Assembly: GCA_965208325.1 (NCBI GenBank)
Contig: OZ242326.1
Coordinates: 896,001 to 960,000 of the forward strand
DNA: 64,000 nucleotides
Reading direction: 5' to 3'
Source: Candidatus Poribacteria bacterium
Lineage (GTDB): Bacteria; Poribacteria; WGA-4E; PCPOR2b
The position numbers and the translations under genes are program-made. Below, piece by piece: positions 6,974 through 20,763 of the stretch (its first letter is position 1; the number at the start of each line of letters is the position of its first letter). The notes below the pieces were generated by a model. It was not told where the DNA came from, ran no database searches, and saw nothing but the letters and a program-made list of their open reading frames with translations.

Positions 6974-7237
6974 CGCCAAAAATCTGCGAACGCCGGTTGA
7001 CGGATACTCCTGTCCTAGTATAAAATCTTAAATTTTCACAAATTGTATTTTACCGCCACCACGCATTATATCCGATACTGTCAGTAACGCTTTTTTTAAT
7101 GAGAAAACTCATAGTTGAGAATCTACCGCCGGATGCCACATAGAAACTGAAAATCATGTAAACTTCTTTAAACTTTGTAAACTTGATCGAGAGAAAATTT
7201 CATCAAAATTTACGTCGCTACAACTTGACATACTTCG

Positions 7238-7954
7238 AGGTTTTGTCGACATCTCTTTATAAGGTTGTGGCATTATGTTAAGAATGATGCCGATAACCTT
7301 ACCTGATAACCAATGGGAAAAAATATATGAGTTTCTTCTGGGTTGTTCCAACATCTTTGTCCGCAACGAAGCCGAAACCCGACGATTCGTCGAAGCTGTC
7401 CTGTGGGTGGCTCGCAGCGGTGCGCAATGGAGATTATTGCCTACTGCTTATGGCAAGTGGAACTCCATTTACAAGCGGTTTAGTAACTGGTGCGACATAG
7501 GAATCTTCGAACATATGCACCGCCACTTTGCCTCCGACCCAGATATGGCGTCGCTTATTATTGACTCGACCATTTGCCGGGCTCACCCATGCGCACCTGG
7601 CGCCTCAAAAAAAACGGGGGTGCCGAAAACCAAGCGTTAGGACGTTCTCGCGGCGGCTTCAGCACCAAGATTCACATCACAGTTGACGCACTAGGTAATC
7701 CGCTTAGACTCCAGCTAACCCCCGGTCAGAGACACGACATAGCTGAAGCCGAATCGTTGATAGTTGGATATAACAGCCAGCATGTAATTGGAGACAAAGG
7801 ATATGACTCAGTTGAATTTATCACCGTTATTGAAGCCAATGGTGCCATTCCGGTGATACCACCACGACGTAATCGTGGTGCTCAAAGAACATTCGACCCC
7901 CATTTATACAAAGAGAGACATCTAGTCGAATGTTTCATCAAAAAAAAATACTAA
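7238..7954 (+). mobile_element. IS5-family (IS427-group-like) insertion sequence, 3'-truncated
   Basis: Two overlapping ORFs joined by an A8 slippery site at 7607-7614; probable left IR AGGTTTTGTCGACAT at 7238-7252; no right IR found. Confidence 0.85.
7275..7954 (+). pseudogene. IS5-family transposase (orfA 7275-7640 / orfB 7574-7954, -1 frameshift), C-terminally truncated
   Basis: 'FVEAVLWVARSGAQWRLLP..YGKWNSIYKRFSNW', 'IDST', 'GRSRGGFSTKIH', 'GDKGYDS', 'ERHLVECF', then a premature stop after the A9 run at 7940-7948. Confidence 0.85.
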
Positions 7955-8300
7955 TCCACGCCACATCACCAACAGCGATTCACCATCCGTGGCAACGCCG
8001 CATGATTATGTGCCCACGTAATCATAGCCCATCGTTTAATCATACAAATCACAGTTCAGACAGTCTTCTCAATAACGCAACACTACACCCGCCGCGGCAA
8101 CAATATGTAGGTTTCATTTTGTTTTTCGAGATTCCCACCGAGCGCCAAAGAATGCCCTGAATCAGAATCCAAAACAACACTGTCCCAAAATTTCCCCTTC
8201 ATACCCACCTGCAACGGCACAAACCCTTGCCCCGTCCGCATCCAAGCGATGGATTTTTCAACCCTTTCCGCCAAAAACCCCGATAACCTCGCACTCCGCC

Positions 8301-8329
8301 TTGACAATCGCTAAATCTCAAAGTATACT
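8301..8329 (+). promoter_or_regulatory. Near-consensus sigma70 promoter giving an almost leaderless transcript
   Basis: TTGACA (8301-8306), 17-bp spacer, TATACT (8324-8329); ATG at 8339 with no SD. Confidence 0.75.
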
Positions 8330-8338
8330 ACAATTATT

Positions 8339-8872
8339 ATGCCAACTACAAATGTCCAATTCGGCGAATCGGACATTGACTTCACCATTGAGCGTTTTGC
8401 TTATTATGGTGAGGGAAAAGCTAATGCGAAGCGCGTAATTCGTGATGTATGTGATTATTTTGGGATTGAAGACAATGCTAGCAATCATAAATTATTATCC
8501 AATAAAATTCGTACCTTTAATCCCAACCGAAAAGACTGCGCAGAGCATTATCGGAGTCGCTATCTCATGAAACGAAATCAGGTTCTTACACACAGACACG
8601 AACCCAACGGCATTTTTTCACAACAGCTACATGCACTTTTACTCGTTGCATTCAAAGTTCTGTCTGAAGAGATGACGCCGCCCCTCGCACTCAAGCTCAT
8701 TGAAGCCGAAATCCGATTCGCAATTGAAAACAAACACATAAATGTTCAGGAAAGAATTGAACGACAATGTTTAGCCGCCGACACGGGAGATAGTTCATTT
8801 CTAAATGGAAAGACGGAGCCGGATTTACGGAAACCACAGTCGGTTTCTGAAAATCCATCGCGCATACCATAG
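8339..8872 (+). CDS. DUF2280-like protein, putative terminase small subunit
   Basis: Pattern 'FTIERFAYY...VIRDVCDYFGI...FNP...AEHY..RY...R...LALKLIE' resembles DUF2280 proteins; lies directly upstream of terL. Confidence 0.45.
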   Translation: MPTTNVQFGESDIDFTIERFAYYGEGKANAKRVIRDVCDYFGIEDNASNHKLLSNKIRTFNPNRKDCAEHYRSRYLMKRNQVLTHRHEPNGIFSQQLHALLLVAFKVLSEEMTPPLALKLIEAEIRFAIENKHINVQERIERQCLAADTGDSSFLNGKTEPDLRKPQSVSENPSRIP

Positions 8873-10619
8873 TGTAAGCGTGCCGTCCGCCATTAAAAGA
8901 ACTGGAGAGGAACAGGACATCTATCTCCGCGGCTTCCATGATGTCCTCTTCTTTGCCAAGCATCACTTTCCCAATGTGTTTACGGTGGAGTGCGGTCCCC
9001 ATGCTTCTCCTATTCTGAATTGCATTCCTTCAGGTGAGCGCGGACAGCGCGTCAATATTATTGCGCCTAGAGGTTGCGGCAAAAGCACCTACATCGCCGT
9101 AATCTATGTGCTGCACTGCGTTTACTACAAAGACGAATACGAACGGCGCGGCTTAATGCCCGATAGCTTCATCGTTATCCTGTGCGGTACCAAAGACCTC
9201 GCTGTGGCGCGGCTGCACGACATCCGAGACAAAATCGAGGACGATCCCAACTTCCGCCATCTCAAAGGAAACGGTAAGTGGAGCGCGGACCAGCTCGATA
9301 CGGCAAACGGAGCATGCCTAATTCCCGTCGGGCGGCACGGAAGAATCCGCGGTGAACTCAAGGATCTCGCAAGACCGACGCTAATTATCCTCGACGATGT
9401 TGAAGACTGCGAGGAAGTCCAAAACCCCCGTATCCGAGATAAAAACTGGAAATGGTTCAACGAAGATGTCATGGCTGCTGGTAGAATTGACGGCAAGACT
9501 AACTTCATCCACGTCGACACCGTAAAGCACGAGGAAGCCATCTCCAAGCGTCTGCAACTTCTGCCCGACTGGTACAACCAATTCTACCGTTCTATTGAAC
9601 ATCCCCGAGACCTACGCCACCCCACCGCCGAACCGTTTTGGGAAGAGTGGCAGAAAATCTATACGGACTTGACGCTCGAAAAAGACGAGCGTGACCGCCT
9701 TGCGCATGCATTTCTTGAGGAACACAAGAATGAAATGCTGGACGGCATCCAAGAACTCTGGCCCCAAATGCTCTCGTACACCTACATCCGGCGGCTCATC
9801 TGCAACGATGGCTATATCCCCGTCATGCGTGAGCGGCAAAACTCGACACGCGACCCTTCTAAAGAAATTTTCAACATGGAAAAAGCCGTTCGCTTCAAAA
9901 TCACGCCCGACGGACTCTTGCGTAGCGACGGGCGGCTAGTCCTATGGAGCGACATCGCTGGCGGTACAGTTTTCCTCGACTGGGCTGGCGGAAAGGACGC
10001 TTACGATTCCTGCTACGCCGCCGCTGTGTTTGTCGTGTGGGAACCGCTGCCTCAAGCGACTATGAGGCGTAAGGGAGAACCGGTTGCCGCCCTCTCTAAC
10101 ACCCACGCCTACGTCCTGAACGTCTGGATGGACAAAGTCCCCGTCACGACCCAACTCGAGGAGACTTTTAAACTCATAAAGCGCAGTGTCAGCGCTGTAC
10201 CGAACATTCGATTCGATTCCATCCTGCTCGCAGTCGAGGAAATTCCGAAAGACACCGGTAACGCGTTACACACCATGATATCGCGGGCTTTTAAGGGTGC
10301 GCGGGAAAAATACGGCATGACCTCGTTAGTCCGCCTTAAATTCCACAAACGAAGTGTCCGGAAGTTGGACCGCATCGCCGCGTTGGAACCGCCAATCGCC
10401 AACGGTTGGCTCGTCTTCAATGAGACGCTGCCAGAAGTGTTTATGCGCCAGATGCGGCAATTCCCGACCGGGGATTTCTGCGACGGTCCCGACGCCCTGC
10501 AAGGCGGGACTGAGTTGCCCATCACGCGCTTCCCCGCCCATAAACTGCCGCACGGAATGCCGATGCCGTTCGACGACGATCCGGACGCGCCAATGCACGT
10601 TATAAGGAGTTATCTATGA
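8805..10619 (+). CDS. terL: Phage terminase large subunit-like ATPase/nuclease (probable start GTG 8880)
   Basis: Walker A 'IIAPRGCGKST', Walker B 'LIILDDVED', RNase H-like nuclease acidic residues 'FLDWA', 'AVEE', 'DGPDAL', and 'KLDRIAALEP..NG' / 'QFPTG' TerL motifs. Confidence 0.85.
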   Translation: MERRSRIYGNHSRFLKIHRAYHSVSVPSAIKRTGEEQDIYLRGFHDVLFFAKHHFPNVFTVECGPHASPILNCIPSGERGQRVNIIAPRGCGKSTYIAVIYVLHCVYYKDEYERRGLMPDSFIVILCGTKDLAVARLHDIRDKIEDDPNFRHLKGNGKWSADQLDTANGACLIPVGRHGRIRGELKDLARPTLIILDDVEDCEEVQNPRIRDKNWKWFNEDVMAAGRIDGKTNFIHVDTVKHEEAISKRLQLLPDWYNQFYRSIEHPRDLRHPTAEPFWEEWQKIYTDLTLEKDERDRLAHAFLEEHKNEMLDGIQELWPQMLSYTYIRRLICNDGYIPVMRERQNSTRDPSKEIFNMEKAVRFKITPDGLLRSDGRLVLWSDIAGGTVFLDWAGGKDAYDSCYAAAVFVVWEPLPQATMRRKGEPVAALSNTHAYVLNVWMDKVPVTTQLEETFKLIKRSVSAVPNIRFDSILLAVEEIPKDTGNALHTMISRAFKGAREKYGMTSLVRLKFHKRSVRKLDRIAALEPPIANGWLVFNETLPEVFMRQMRQFPTGDFCDGPDALQGGTELPITRFPAHKLPHGMPMPFDDDPDAPMHVIRSYL

Positions 10620-10874
10620 TGGCTGAATTAACCAACATGTTAGGGCCTTCAAAAATGAGCATTCTCAACTTATTTTTTCTGGCGCACAACAATGCTCAAC
10701 GCCCCAAACCCGCTCCCTGTCTAGCTTTCCACGCGTTTTGCTTATTTCACTATGTCCCAAATACTCAAAAAATAAGCAAATCCAATATCCCAAATTTACC
10801 TCGCCTCAACTTAACCAAAGTCACGCTTATTTCCCTGAACATGTGCCAAATTTCATTTGGAGAGAGGCCGAGAT

Positions 10875-11360
10875 ATGACTAAAATTGTTAGCACGCTTCT
10901 CGCGTTTGGGGCTATAGCCGCTGTCATGCTTGTTTTCATTGTTACTCTTTTGCACAGCGACTCCTTCAATATACGTACGTCATCTGAGCCCGAGAGTGTT
11001 GAACTTGATGCGGCAAATCAGTCGCCAAATAATCTGGGATTGTCTTCCGAAGTGGACTTTTTGTTTGGGAGACCTAGATGGTTGCCGGGTGGGGTGATTC
11101 AAATTATCCCAACTGTCGGCGTGGATTTTGGGTTCATCCGACCAATCGCATCCGGGTATGCTGTCGGAAGGTCATTCATGGTCGGTACGAGCACCACGCT
11201 ATCCGATGAAGAGTTAGGTTTCAGCACAAAACATCGCGTCTCCTTTGAAACGGGAATCCGCGTTTACCTATCCCCTTCGCAGTATGTGTCGATCACTTGC
11301 GGCAAACAGTACGACGAAGATAGCGTTACGACAAACTTTAAAACTGCGTTGCGGCTTTAA
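10875..11360 (+). CDS. Hypothetical exported/membrane protein with beta-strand-rich C-terminus
   Basis: N-terminal TM/signal segment; C-terminus resembles the barrel end of the 2267-4621 protein; GGAG RBS. Confidence 0.5.
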   Translation: MTKIVSTLLAFGAIAAVMLVFIVTLLHSDSFNIRTSSEPESVELDAANQSPNNLGLSSEVDFLFGRPRWLPGGVIQIIPTVGVDFGFIRPIASGYAVGRSFMVGTSTTLSDEELGFSTKHRVSFETGIRVYLSPSQYVSITCGKQYDEDSVTTNFKTALRL

Positions 11361-11405
11361 TGTTGGCGCGCGCCGGTTATATGACAACGGTGCAATGATG
11401 ATGGG

Positions 11406-12620
11406 TTGTTGGAAAGCAATCAAATAATTGTGCGATGCTCCCGCGCAAATATAACCAAGTTCTATGTCAGCTCAGCGCTCGGCGGTTTTACGCTATTTCA
11501 CGGCGTGTTGGGTTTTTACATGCGGCAGATTGGGTTTTCGTACACCCAAATCTTCTTTTTAGCCGCCCTATACGAAATCTTGGTTTTTCTCTTGGAAATT
11601 CCGACTGGCGTATTTGCCGACCGTTTCGGGCTTAAAAAGTGCGCAGTCCTAGGGCACTTCATATCCGCCGCAAGTTGTTTTCCGATTGCACTGTTCCCCA
11701 CATCTTACAGCGTGTTCCTTCTCTGGAGCGTGTTGTCAGCGATATGCACGACACTGAATTCCGGATCGGTAGAGGCGCTGCAATTCGAGTCGTTGCGAGA
11801 TATATCGCGCGAAGCAGAATACACAAAGTTGCGCGGCAGATTAGCCGCAATCGGAGGCTTGTCAATGCCGGTTGGGGCTCTTATCGGCGGCGTTCTTTGC
11901 GAGAACATCGGGTTTGGTAACGTCGTCGCGCTCGGCGGGCTGACCGGACTATTTATTACCGCAGTTTATGTCAGTATGAGCGAACCGAGCGAGGTTCAAC
12001 TAGCGCGCGAAAGTTTGACAGATCAAAGCATATTTAAGTGGATAGCCGAAAACTTTCGATTTATTAAAAAGGATAAGGAATTAACCGGAGTCATTATCGC
12101 CGGAGCGGTGGTCTATGCAGCGTATCTTCTGATTAATAACTATTCGCAGCCGTGTTTGGAAGAGGCAGGAATACAGTCGTATCGAATTGTTGGCTTGGTT
12201 AGCGGCTCCTTTATGCTCGCGTTCGCCGCAGTCTCATGGTGGGCGGGATATTTGACGCAACGCATCGGAGCGAAAGGCACATTCGTGTGGTTGTCCGGCG
12301 TGCCGATTTTGAGTTTAATAGGCTTGGGAAGACTTAACGGCATCACATTATTGGCACCGCTCTATCTCTCCAGGTTGGGCGAGGGTGTCGCCGAGCCTGT
12401 CATCTCGAACCGGTTGCTTCAGAAAAGCCCAGCGGGAAGAACCGCAACGCTCCTTTCCACGCATAGCCTTCTTACATCGCTGGTATTTTCTATATGGAGC
12501 ATGGCGAGCGGGTTTGGTCTGGACAATGTAGGTCGATTCTTCACATTTTCTGCGGGTGCCGCCTTCGCGGTTATAATATTGCTGTGGAGCGGGCGGTGGG
12601 TAGTGAGAACTGACGATTAG
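11406..12620 (+). CDS. MFS transporter
   Basis: ~12 TM helices; 'LEIPTGVFADRFGLK' MFS motif A. Confidence 0.9.
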   Translation: MLESNQIIVRCSRANITKFYVSSALGGFTLFHGVLGFYMRQIGFSYTQIFFLAALYEILVFLLEIPTGVFADRFGLKKCAVLGHFISAASCFPIALFPTSYSVFLLWSVLSAICTTLNSGSVEALQFESLRDISREAEYTKLRGRLAAIGGLSMPVGALIGGVLCENIGFGNVVALGGLTGLFITAVYVSMSEPSEVQLARESLTDQSIFKWIAENFRFIKKDKELTGVIIAGAVVYAAYLLINNYSQPCLEEAGIQSYRIVGLVSGSFMLAFAAVSWWAGYLTQRIGAKGTFVWLSGVPILSLIGLGRLNGITLLAPLYLSRLGEGVAEPVISNRLLQKSPAGRTATLLSTHSLLTSLVFSIWSMASGFGLDNVGRFFTFSAGAAFAVIILLWSGRWVVRTDD

Positions 12621-20412: not shown

Positions 20413-20763
20413 TTAAGCCCCTTCGGAATTGTCGTTTGGCTTGTGAACTTGCTTGACGACCGAAACTCCCGCCTGCAATGCGTCCACCGATTCGATTTCA
20501 ATTGTCTTTGGGATACCCTTCGCGCTCAAAGCCACGTCAAACTCAAAACGGTGGATTCCAGCCAATTCCGCTGCCCTCGCAAGCGTCACTTCACCGTGTT
20601 GATAAAGCAAAATTGCGGCATCAAGACGAGATTCTTTTTTCGTAGTGACTAATTTTTCAAGTGCATCGGTCATCAACGCATGCGAATCGGCATAAAGTCC
20701 CACATCAATCAGGGCGTTCACCTCTTCTTCAAGGGTAGGTGAGTGAATTTCAATCTGGAGCAT
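20413..20763 (-). CDS. UPF0175-family antitoxin
   Basis: 'AILLYQHGEVTLARAAELAGI..FEF...L..KGI' HTH pattern; 2 bp upstream of the PIN gene. Confidence 0.8.
   Translation of the reverse strand: MLQIEIHSPTLEEEVNALIDVGLYADSHALMTDALEKLVTTKKESRLDAAILLYQHGEVTLARAAELAGIHRFEFDVALSAKGIPKTIEIESVDALQAGVSVVKQVHKPNDNSEGA

Follow-up and report, generated by a model that had tools for sequence, protein, structure and literature searches.

The genome of an uncultured sponge symbiont of the lineage Candidatus Poribacteria carries five copies of a small two-gene cassette, in which a gene for a phage terminase large subunit (TerL) is preceded by a gene in the position of the terminase small subunit (TerS). These cassettes, each a terS-like gene plus terL, are phage-derived, multicopy, intact, under selection and positionally unstable, and no portal or capsid gene was detected in the genome that holds them. 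One copy, cassette A, lies in the window, by which we mean the whole 64-kb stretch of DNA that was analysed (positions 896001-960000 of contig 1). The other four full-length copies of the genome are called B, C, D and E. As no capsid of its own was detected, a complete terminase would have to rely on capsids from an infecting phage for its known function. We tentatively propose that the stand-alone terminase acts on such capsids, so that it mobilises its own genes along with DNA close by and hampers the phage.

The genome that contains the window, G000, is a single contig of 4,707,648 bp with a completeness of 95.6%. Contigs of three sequencing runs, all from one study, cover the whole cassette stretch and reveal neither joints nor an allele with an empty site. 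G000 was compared with 40 relatives (41 genomes in total). G000 to G003 are four genomes of one genus, in which G002 is the sister species of G000. A second set consists of 45 loci, namely the five cassettes of G000 and 40 loci from a scan of bacteria and archaea with one genome per species. Open reading frames (ORFs) in related loci are crude longest-ORF calls, and all counts over related genomes are counts of members that are not independent of each other.

The genes and promoter of cassette A

The larger gene of the cassette (8805..10619, forward strand) is, according to its profile match and alignments, a terminase large subunit with a predicted ATPase and a predicted RNase H-like nuclease, in which all catalytic columns are conserved. 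Its start is ambiguous: the protein has 604 residues (aa) when read from the ATG at 8805, or 579 aa when read from the GTG at 8880, as in the database entry. In a PHROGs profile search, TerL matches phrog_38, ‘terminase large subunit’, with an E-value of 2.1e-47, and phrog_4758 with 8.4e-5. NCBIfam returned weak, sub-threshold matches to TIGR01630 and NF033889 only. No Pfam terminase family matched at E≤0.01, and DEAD alone appeared at 1.5e-4, under its own cut-off.

The translation contains the motifs APRGCGKST, LIILDDVED, FLDWAG, VEE and DGPDA. In an alignment of 15 sequences (the query, four paralogues and ten relatives), G90, K93, D197, D198, D392, D560 and D563 are invariant, while E203 and E478 are nearly so. 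We take G90/K93, D197/D198 and E203 to be the Walker A motif, the Walker B motif and the catalytic glutamate of the N-terminal ATPase, and D392, E478 and D560/D563 to be the acidic residues of the C-terminal RNase H-like nuclease. With the motifs located on invariant or nearly invariant columns, the original prediction of an intact 604-codon TerL that retains its ATPase and nuclease motifs is borne out. The closest deposited phage TerL is ~26% identical to the window protein, and viral contigs in IMG/VR hold distant relatives only (≤33% identity among the best 80). No solved structure is related to TerL by sequence at E≤1e-3. TerLs that are 43-47% identical to it are carried by contigs of ~42-43 kb.

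The smaller gene (8339..8872, forward strand) encodes a partner protein of 177 aa in the TerS position, supported by an ORF call, a family alignment and a structural model. It overlaps the TerL ORF, counted from the ATG at 8805, by 68 nt. In 39 of the 45 loci, such a partner ORF (≥70 codons) extends up to the TerL start; it is missing from five loci of genus g5 and from one truncated locus. By blastp, 32 of the partner ORFs, including those of A, B, D and E, form one family with an invariant NP motif (N61 and P62 in the window protein), and six form a second, C-type family. The description of the small ORF as ‘DUF2280-like’ in the original prediction could not be upheld, as none of the 32 family members matches DUF2280 or any terminase-small Pfam family at E≤1. 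The window partner itself matches neither PHROGs nor Pfam at E≤0.01. Its family is small: a search of 1.84 billion proteins yielded 94 cluster representatives at E≤1e-3.

An AlphaFold2 (AF2) model of the 177-aa protein is all-helical, with a mean predicted local distance difference test score (pLDDT) of 74.6. It consists of a confident N-terminal helical domain (~residues 10-86), a helical hairpin (88-151) and a low-confidence C-terminal tail. The fold matches of the model are weak and fall overall on Myb/SANT/winged-helix domains (Z 5.3-6.3); they comprise the Myb-like DNA-binding domain of an R2 protein (Z 6.3) and the DNA-binding modules of MukF and ISWI (Z 5.3-5.4). A Foldseek search of the PDB with this model returned nothing at E≤1e-3, a sequence profile search of the PDB gave a chance-level coiled-coil match only, and the ESM Atlas gave no usable match. 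Complex prediction for the small protein together with TerL scored 0.00, which is under the mark and counts as evidence neither way.

We infer that the 177-aa partner, a candidate DNA-binding protein, has the role of a TerS, because of its gene position, because the C-type equivalent is a recognised TerS, and because a member of the same family stands before TerL and a portal gene on a metagenome contig, L181. The C-type partner matches phrog_4102 in all six members (best 9e-24) and is unrelated to the window family. When the window family was aligned by hhalign with the C-type TerS, and with the TerS of a second metagenome contig (L183, discussed below), the probability was <1% in both cases. 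On L181, the family member (hhalign probability 98.6%, E 1.3e-15) lies upstream of TerL, and the portal gene follows 0.9 kb downstream. The window partner family is also found upstream of TerL, with a portal nearby, at loci L115 and L146.

The small gene is preceded by a predicted sigma-70-type promoter on the forward strand (8301..8329), which matches at 11 of 12 positions and is the sole match of this quality within 7000-12000. Its -35 box TTGACA (8301-8306) is followed by 17 nt, the -10 box TATACT (8324-8329) and a further 9 nt to the ATG at 8339, exactly as had been read from the sequence before. With so short a distance between -10 box and start codon, the mRNA is predicted to have almost no leader. 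The arrangement of -35 box, spacing and -10 box is kept in four of the five copies of the A/B subfamily, and the homology between these copies begins at the promoter. A shared regulon was considered and rejected, as the cassette promoter motif occurs once only in G000.

Multicopy cassettes in a genome without detectable portal or capsid genes

G000 contains five full-length TerL paralogues without stop codons, together with two fragments that have stop codons. B is 79% identical to TerL A, and C, D and E are 39-40% identical to it; the closest intragenomic pair shares 78% nucleotide and 79% protein identity. Each full copy has an overlapping ORF of 167-205 codons at the TerL start. B precedes planctomycete-type cytochrome genes, C follows a penicillin-amidase gene, D is located between the gene of an HtrA-type protease and a large invasin-like gene, and E precedes a Type ISP restriction-modification gene. 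Portal or capsid genes adjoin none of the five cassettes, and their flanking ORFs match no integrase, regulator or replication Pfam families. In the 64-kb window, the other 54 ORFs of at least 100 aa are host-type (proteases, pyrimidine synthesis, ScpAB, TrpRS, IlvD and others) and give no match to portal, capsid, tail, integrase or repressor families, in agreement with the original prediction. No tRNA gene was found in the window.

TerL matches occur in 16 of the 41 genomes. The four genomes of the genus have 6, 9, 7 and 5 matches, which makes 27; 24 of these are full-length (≥500 residues and no stop), with 5-8 full-length copies per genome. The scan of bacteria and archaea mentioned above yielded 58 TerL loci, and all loci with at least 37% identity are labelled Candidatus Poribacteria. 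Matches of 23-35% identity come mostly from Planctomycetota, and one partial match of 33% lies on a 6-kb contig labelled as an archaeal metagenome-assembled genome.

Both cassette genes are under purifying selection. The ratio of non-synonymous to synonymous substitution rates (dN/dS) was determined for 16 orthologous or paralogous pairs. It is 0.12-0.37 for TerL and 0.10-0.34 for the partner, except in one partner pair with a value of 0.71 and a dS of just 0.10. For comparison, 15 host genes near copy D have dN/dS values of 0.07-0.46 and dS values of 0.10-0.36 between G000 and G002. The TerL of the A orthologue in G002 has a dS of 0.21, within this host-gene range. In the L109/L110 pair, the TerL dS of 0.54 is about half that of the adjoining housekeeping genes (1.0-1.35), a difference that may reflect later transfer of the cassette between species or additional constraint on the cassette DNA. 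Copies that escape selection do decay, as is seen from those disrupted by stop codons.

This pattern bears on the reading that the cassettes are inert remnants of five independent prophages, left behind by deletion and devoid of a present function. The phage origin of the lineage, the insertion sequence (IS) that adjoins cassette A and the decayed fragments are compatible with it. However, each of the five copies in G000 has kept this same gene pair in intact form; for either gene, 15 of 16 pairs have a dN/dS far below 1, and the catalytic residues are invariant. Moreover, orthologues are kept across species at host-like dS, and the 24 full-length copies in the four genomes are met by 0 portal matches. 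Selection and copy-number data thus largely refute this reading, and we consider it scarcely tenable. That cassette A is not a recent prophage remnant had also been anticipated in the original prediction, and it holds, as the cassette is present in relatives, outside prophages and under purifying selection (dN/dS 0.10-0.37, apart from the pair at 0.71).

Judged by sequence, the cassette family is derived from phages with P22-type portals. In seven of the 45 loci, a P22-type portal gene lies 1-1.5 kb downstream of TerL (PF16510 1.2e-10; phrog_156 7e-17 to 8e-15). The metagenome contig L183 (40.6 kb) carries genes for a methyltransferase, an HNH endonuclease, a TerS, a TerL that is 37% identical to the query, and a phrog_156 portal. 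In a quick maximum-likelihood tree, with support from the Shimodaira-Hasegawa-like approximate likelihood ratio test (SH-aLRT) only, portal-linked TerLs occupy at least three positions among the orphan clades, amounting to at least three changes. This interleaving suggests that orphan cassettes arose repeatedly from phages. In genus g5, portal matches are about as numerous as TerL matches (~1:1). Here, five loci (L121-L125) have a TerL without a small partner and a P22-type portal ~1 kb downstream, beside a GHMP-kinase gene and in the same neighbourhood in five species. This TerL-portal locus may be a vertically kept phage-like cluster.

The g5 locus, syntenic in five species beside a host gene, also speaks for a scenario in which the cassettes are the packaging module of a dispersed system akin to gene transfer agents (GTAs), with capsid, portal and tail genes elsewhere in the genome and too divergent to be recognised. 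A split GTA module had been among the roles considered in the original prediction, along with a search for orphan portal or capsid loci elsewhere in the genome. Such loci were looked for and none was found. G000 gave no match to phrog_156, PF04860, PF05133, PF05136, PF05065 or PF11651, which are portal and capsid families (tail families were not searched). A tblastn search of G000 with all genes from the seven portal-bearing loci recovered no portal, nor any of four other families that neighbour TerL, but only TerL and common host or repeat families. Profile hidden Markov models (HMMs) of the cognate Poribacteria portal and of the four neighbouring families found nothing at E≤1 in the six-frame translation of G000. 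These six families and the HMMs therefore match nothing in a one-contig genome that is 95.6% complete. Likewise, phrog_156 matches neither the four genomes of the genus nor G040, which has 6 TerL matches. In addition, five to eight terminases per particle system would be unprecedented, and the cassette promoter motif is found nowhere else in G000. A dispersed GTA-like system is therefore highly unlikely, and the split-module proposal finds no backing in the portal and capsid families searched.

Non-coding ends and changes of position

TerL is followed by a conserved non-coding tail of ~195 nt (10614..10810, forward strand), which begins at the TerL stop codon and was defined in an alignment of 15 copies. 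The tail contains several almost invariant A/T-rich blocks and a short motif that is repeated three times. Its mean column identity in the 15 copies is 72%, and in places its conservation exceeds that of the genes. Within the A/B subfamily, homology between copies ends ~195 nt past the TerL stop. We regard the tail as a candidate cis site for terminase recognition or recombination. An exact 14-nt direct repeat is found at 8392-8405, in the 5' part of the small gene, and at 10733-10746, in the tail; it is not located at the deletion junction of the mini-copies described below.

Three other identities of the tail were considered. An 88-codon ORF (10616-10882) covers it, but the copies differ by indels of 1, 2 and 10 nt. 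As these do not come in multiples of three, the tail is non-coding and was rejected as a gene. A structured RNA was dropped because RNAalifold on the 15 copies gave -2.3 kcal/mol, with no covariation and no conserved fold; an Rfam search of 7000-12000 returned nothing at E≤1. Finally, the tail might have been the upstream region of a family of secreted or membrane-anchored repeat proteins of the GKDG...HGG type (76-613 aa, no Pfam match). Proteins of this type flank cassettes in 10 of the 45 loci (ownB, ownE, L107, L108, L111, L136 and L138-L141), and G000 has 13 regions that encode them. This identity was rejected as well, since in six of the seven tail copies in G000 the 3 kb that follow are free of such genes, and the remaining copy, that of B, has a reverse-strand fragment only.

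The cassettes change position between closely related genomes. The unit common to G000 and G002 spans 8015..10816 of the window (forward strand) at 91% nucleotide identity, and the G002 copy resides in another chromosomal context. In G002, the counterparts of the window flanks (7116-7184 and 10806 onward) are contiguous apart from ~160 nt and thus represent an empty site. It follows that the IS and cassette A are an insertion in G000 or have been lost from G002. At the right junction (10806..10816), where the homology ranges overlap, a few bases at the end of the cassette copy in G002 recur at the empty site of that genome; these shared bases could be microhomology or target sequence. Where G000 carries B, the two genomes differ by a 5.4-kb indel. 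At the position of C, no cassette is found in G001, G002 or G003, and G001 and G003 hold C-type copies elsewhere.

The left junction of cassette A is masked by the IS (7238-7946), which consists of 709 bp with two overlapping ORFs, DUF4096 followed by DDE_Tnp_1. This element had previously been taken for a fragment. It looks whole, and it has a second copy at 94% identity in G000 (2357802-2358510) and many copies in G003. The left edge of the segment common to the G000 and G002 copies falls into a short dispersed repeat of 45-75 nt (7993..8067), which is not a cassette-specific feature. Of the 66 rows of a blastn search of G000, 57 are due to this repeat at other positions, some of them in arrays with a period of ~286 or 338 nt, and contig depth at the repeat is ~10x that of the surroundings. 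Two further copies are located 250 and 450 nt downstream of the orthologous G002 cassette.

Shortened copies also exist. In mini-copies, the small gene is reduced to its 5'-terminal ~190 nt, which are joined to the tail at one same junction. We found five such copies at four independent loci in three genomes, two in G000, one in G001 and two in G003, of which one is orthologous to the G001 copy. The cassette promoter is kept in the mini-copies L171-L173 (G001/G003), degenerate in m2339 of G000, and the region is missing in m1583. Just past the tail, L171-L173 carry an outward-facing promoter, TTGACT-17-TATAAT, which is exact in L171 (1300-1400) and L172, has one mismatch in L173 and is missing from the window copy. 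G000 also holds a decayed copy, made up of the last 280 nt of terL and the tail, and several tail-only copies. The surroundings of the cassettes in G000 are a mosaic of many nested short repeat families, and for this reason we take the mini-copies and solo tails as suggestive of a cis role, not as proof.

The cassette might alternatively be a selfish element that mobilises itself. The TerL nuclease and its DNA-binding partner would then cut and move the cassette, the promoter region and the tail would be its ends, and the head-plus-tail copies would be non-autonomous derivatives. The presence or absence of the cassette at a site that is empty in one genome, the conservation of the non-coding ends on both the 5' and the 3' side in the A/B subfamily, tail-only copies and internal deletions with a shared junction at four independent loci agree with such an element, as do the multiple copies and the patchy distribution over 16 of the 41 genomes. 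On the other hand, no inverted repeat was found that links the two cassette ends, and there is no clean target-site duplication. With 78% nucleotide identity in the closest intragenomic pair, near-identical copies are absent, so that no recent transposition is visible. C-type copies share only their two ORFs between genomes, and the repeat families around the cassettes are unrelated to each other. To our knowledge, no terminase acts as a transposase, and our literature searches found none either. We therefore judge a self-mobilising element to be improbable.

Two further features of the window lie away from the cassette. Between 40324 and 45700 there are six tandem paralogues of ~262-290 aa, each with a Laminin_G_3 (concanavalin-like lectin) domain. 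At 20413-20760, a UPF0175-family (antitoxin-like) ORF adjoins a 166-aa ORF without a Pfam match, and the two could be a toxin-antitoxin pair.

Possible functions and relation to known systems

We return to our tentative proposal that the stand-alone terminase acts on the capsids of infecting phages. Here, a related phage would infect the cell and supply procapsids, on which the cassette terminase would then act. The small protein would bind a recognition site in or beside the cassette, for which the 195-nt tail and the 5' part of the small gene are candidates. TerL would cut at this site and pump chromosomal DNA into the phage capsids, which would thereby be diverted from the phage. The cassette and neighbouring host genes would spread by transduction, making the cassette a minimal satellite or a driver of lateral transduction. 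Relocation within genomes would probably occur by recombination among the short dispersed repeats around the cassettes.

A more far-reaching version of this proposal, which we put forward as a speculation and hold to be doubtful, is that the cassettes constitute a new class of minimal phage parasite, consisting of a terminase and a recognition site only, with several units per chromosome. Any compatible phage that infects would end up packaging and transducing long stretches of symbiont DNA, nearby defence genes among them, to its own cost. This would amount to distributed, capsid-less lateral transduction combined with interference.

Several observations weigh against a packaging role. Each step of the mechanism is inferred, the helper phage is hypothetical and the role of the tail as a packaging site is putative. 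The near-consensus promoter is limited to the A/B subfamily, and a match of at least 10/12 is found in 6 of 39 cassettes, compared with 8% of 768 control genes; a strong constitutive promoter is also not expected for a module that awaits a phage. C-type cassettes have no common non-coding flank between genomes, only the two ORFs. Tail-only copies and mini-copies may be by-products of general repeat shuffling. Finally, D and E (G000 versus G002) and the L109/L110 pair are syntenic between species, which fits a function retained by the host equally well.

Such a host-retained function could be directed against phages without any packaging. The cassette proteins could cut or compete for the concatemers of related phages, or poison their portals or terminases, acting as a dominant-negative decoy or an abortive-infection nuclease. 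The purifying selection on both genes and the long-term synteny of D, E and L109/L110 agree with this, and the strong promoter of the A/B subfamily would fit constitutive expression. Each genome also holds several subfamilies with 35-50% identity, as expected for arms-race genes.

Defence genes are found close to some of the cassettes and can likewise be cited for an anti-phage role. In seven of the 45 loci, namely L014 (G000:2466469-2469567), L128, L133, L136, L138, L139 and L140, the cassette is followed at a distance of 0.4-5.5 kb by a Type ISP restriction-modification gene. These loci span at least two cassette subfamilies, and G000 has two such genes in total. The gene of a Uma2-family nuclease adjoins two further cassettes. 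The Type ISP association fits defence and the transduction of defence genes alike.

Against an anti-phage function, the two proteins of the window match none of the 5027 PADLOC models (PADLOC-DB 2.0, E≤0.01); the C-type small protein gave one weak DrmC match (5.5e-4). A simple decoy would also have no need of the full conservation seen in both the ATPase and the nuclease. Moreover, cassette positions change between sister species, and literature searches did not find an experimental precedent. On balance, we consider a purely anti-phage function rather unlikely. The idea of a domesticated host pair, put forward in the original prediction, stands in part: the genes are intact and selected, they occur in a non-phage context in relatives, and the promoter is conserved in the closest copies. 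They are not a single pair, however, but one of five cassettes in the genome, and the genus has 24 full-length TerL genes. As the positions of the cassettes differ between sister species, a selfish or mobile reading is as good as one of host domestication.

Comparison with known systems places the proposed packaging role in context. The cassette resembles the TerS and TerL holoenzyme of phages (headful packaging, P22-type portal; phrog_38 and phrog_156) in gene order, including the overlap of the small gene with the beginning of terL. Its TerL has the same domain make-up and the same catalytic columns as phage TerL, and relatives with 35-43% identity occur in phage-like contigs with a portal downstream. 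Unlike phage terminases, the cassette is present in five copies, in a genome without detectable portal or capsid genes, and has a host-type promoter at its 5' side. The window lacks tail, lysis and integration genes, and the partner matches no known TerS family.

Phage-inducible chromosomal islands (PICIs) and other satellites redirect the packaging of a helper phage with a terminase small subunit of their own. Satellite-driven and lateral transduction are the subject of papers such as PMC12829572 and PMC8575950. The logic proposed here for the cassette is the same as in PICI-like satellites: a capsid-less chromosomal element would use a terminase to fill helper capsids and to drive lateral transduction. 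The cassette differs from these satellites in that it measures only 2.5-2.8 kb, encodes a full TerL rather than just a TerS, and is present in several units per chromosome. In addition, no att site was seen at the cassettes, nor any gene for an integrase, a repressor, replication or the remodelling of capsids.

GTAs of the RcGTA type have a full set of head and tail genes and one terminase. Like the cassettes, GTAs are phage-derived packaging genes that are kept by selection in a bacterial chromosome, and some of the cassette loci resemble them in their vertical inheritance. In contrast to GTAs, the genomes of this genus have many terminases, and no portal or capsid gene was detected alongside them. 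In the full-text literature, we found no paper on stand-alone terminase cassettes or on terminases of Poribacteria. The parts are thus known, and their arrangement appears to be undescribed.

Terminases are treated as hallmark genes of complete phages and are routinely used for prophage calling and phage phylogenies. In genomes such as those described here, TerL counts should not be equated with prophage counts. Should the cassettes indeed take over infecting phages, no smaller satellite-like elements would be known, and a host-associated microbiome would have a new route for gene flow and possibly for phage resistance. If they are nucleases or mobile elements instead, they would represent a new use of the terminase fold.

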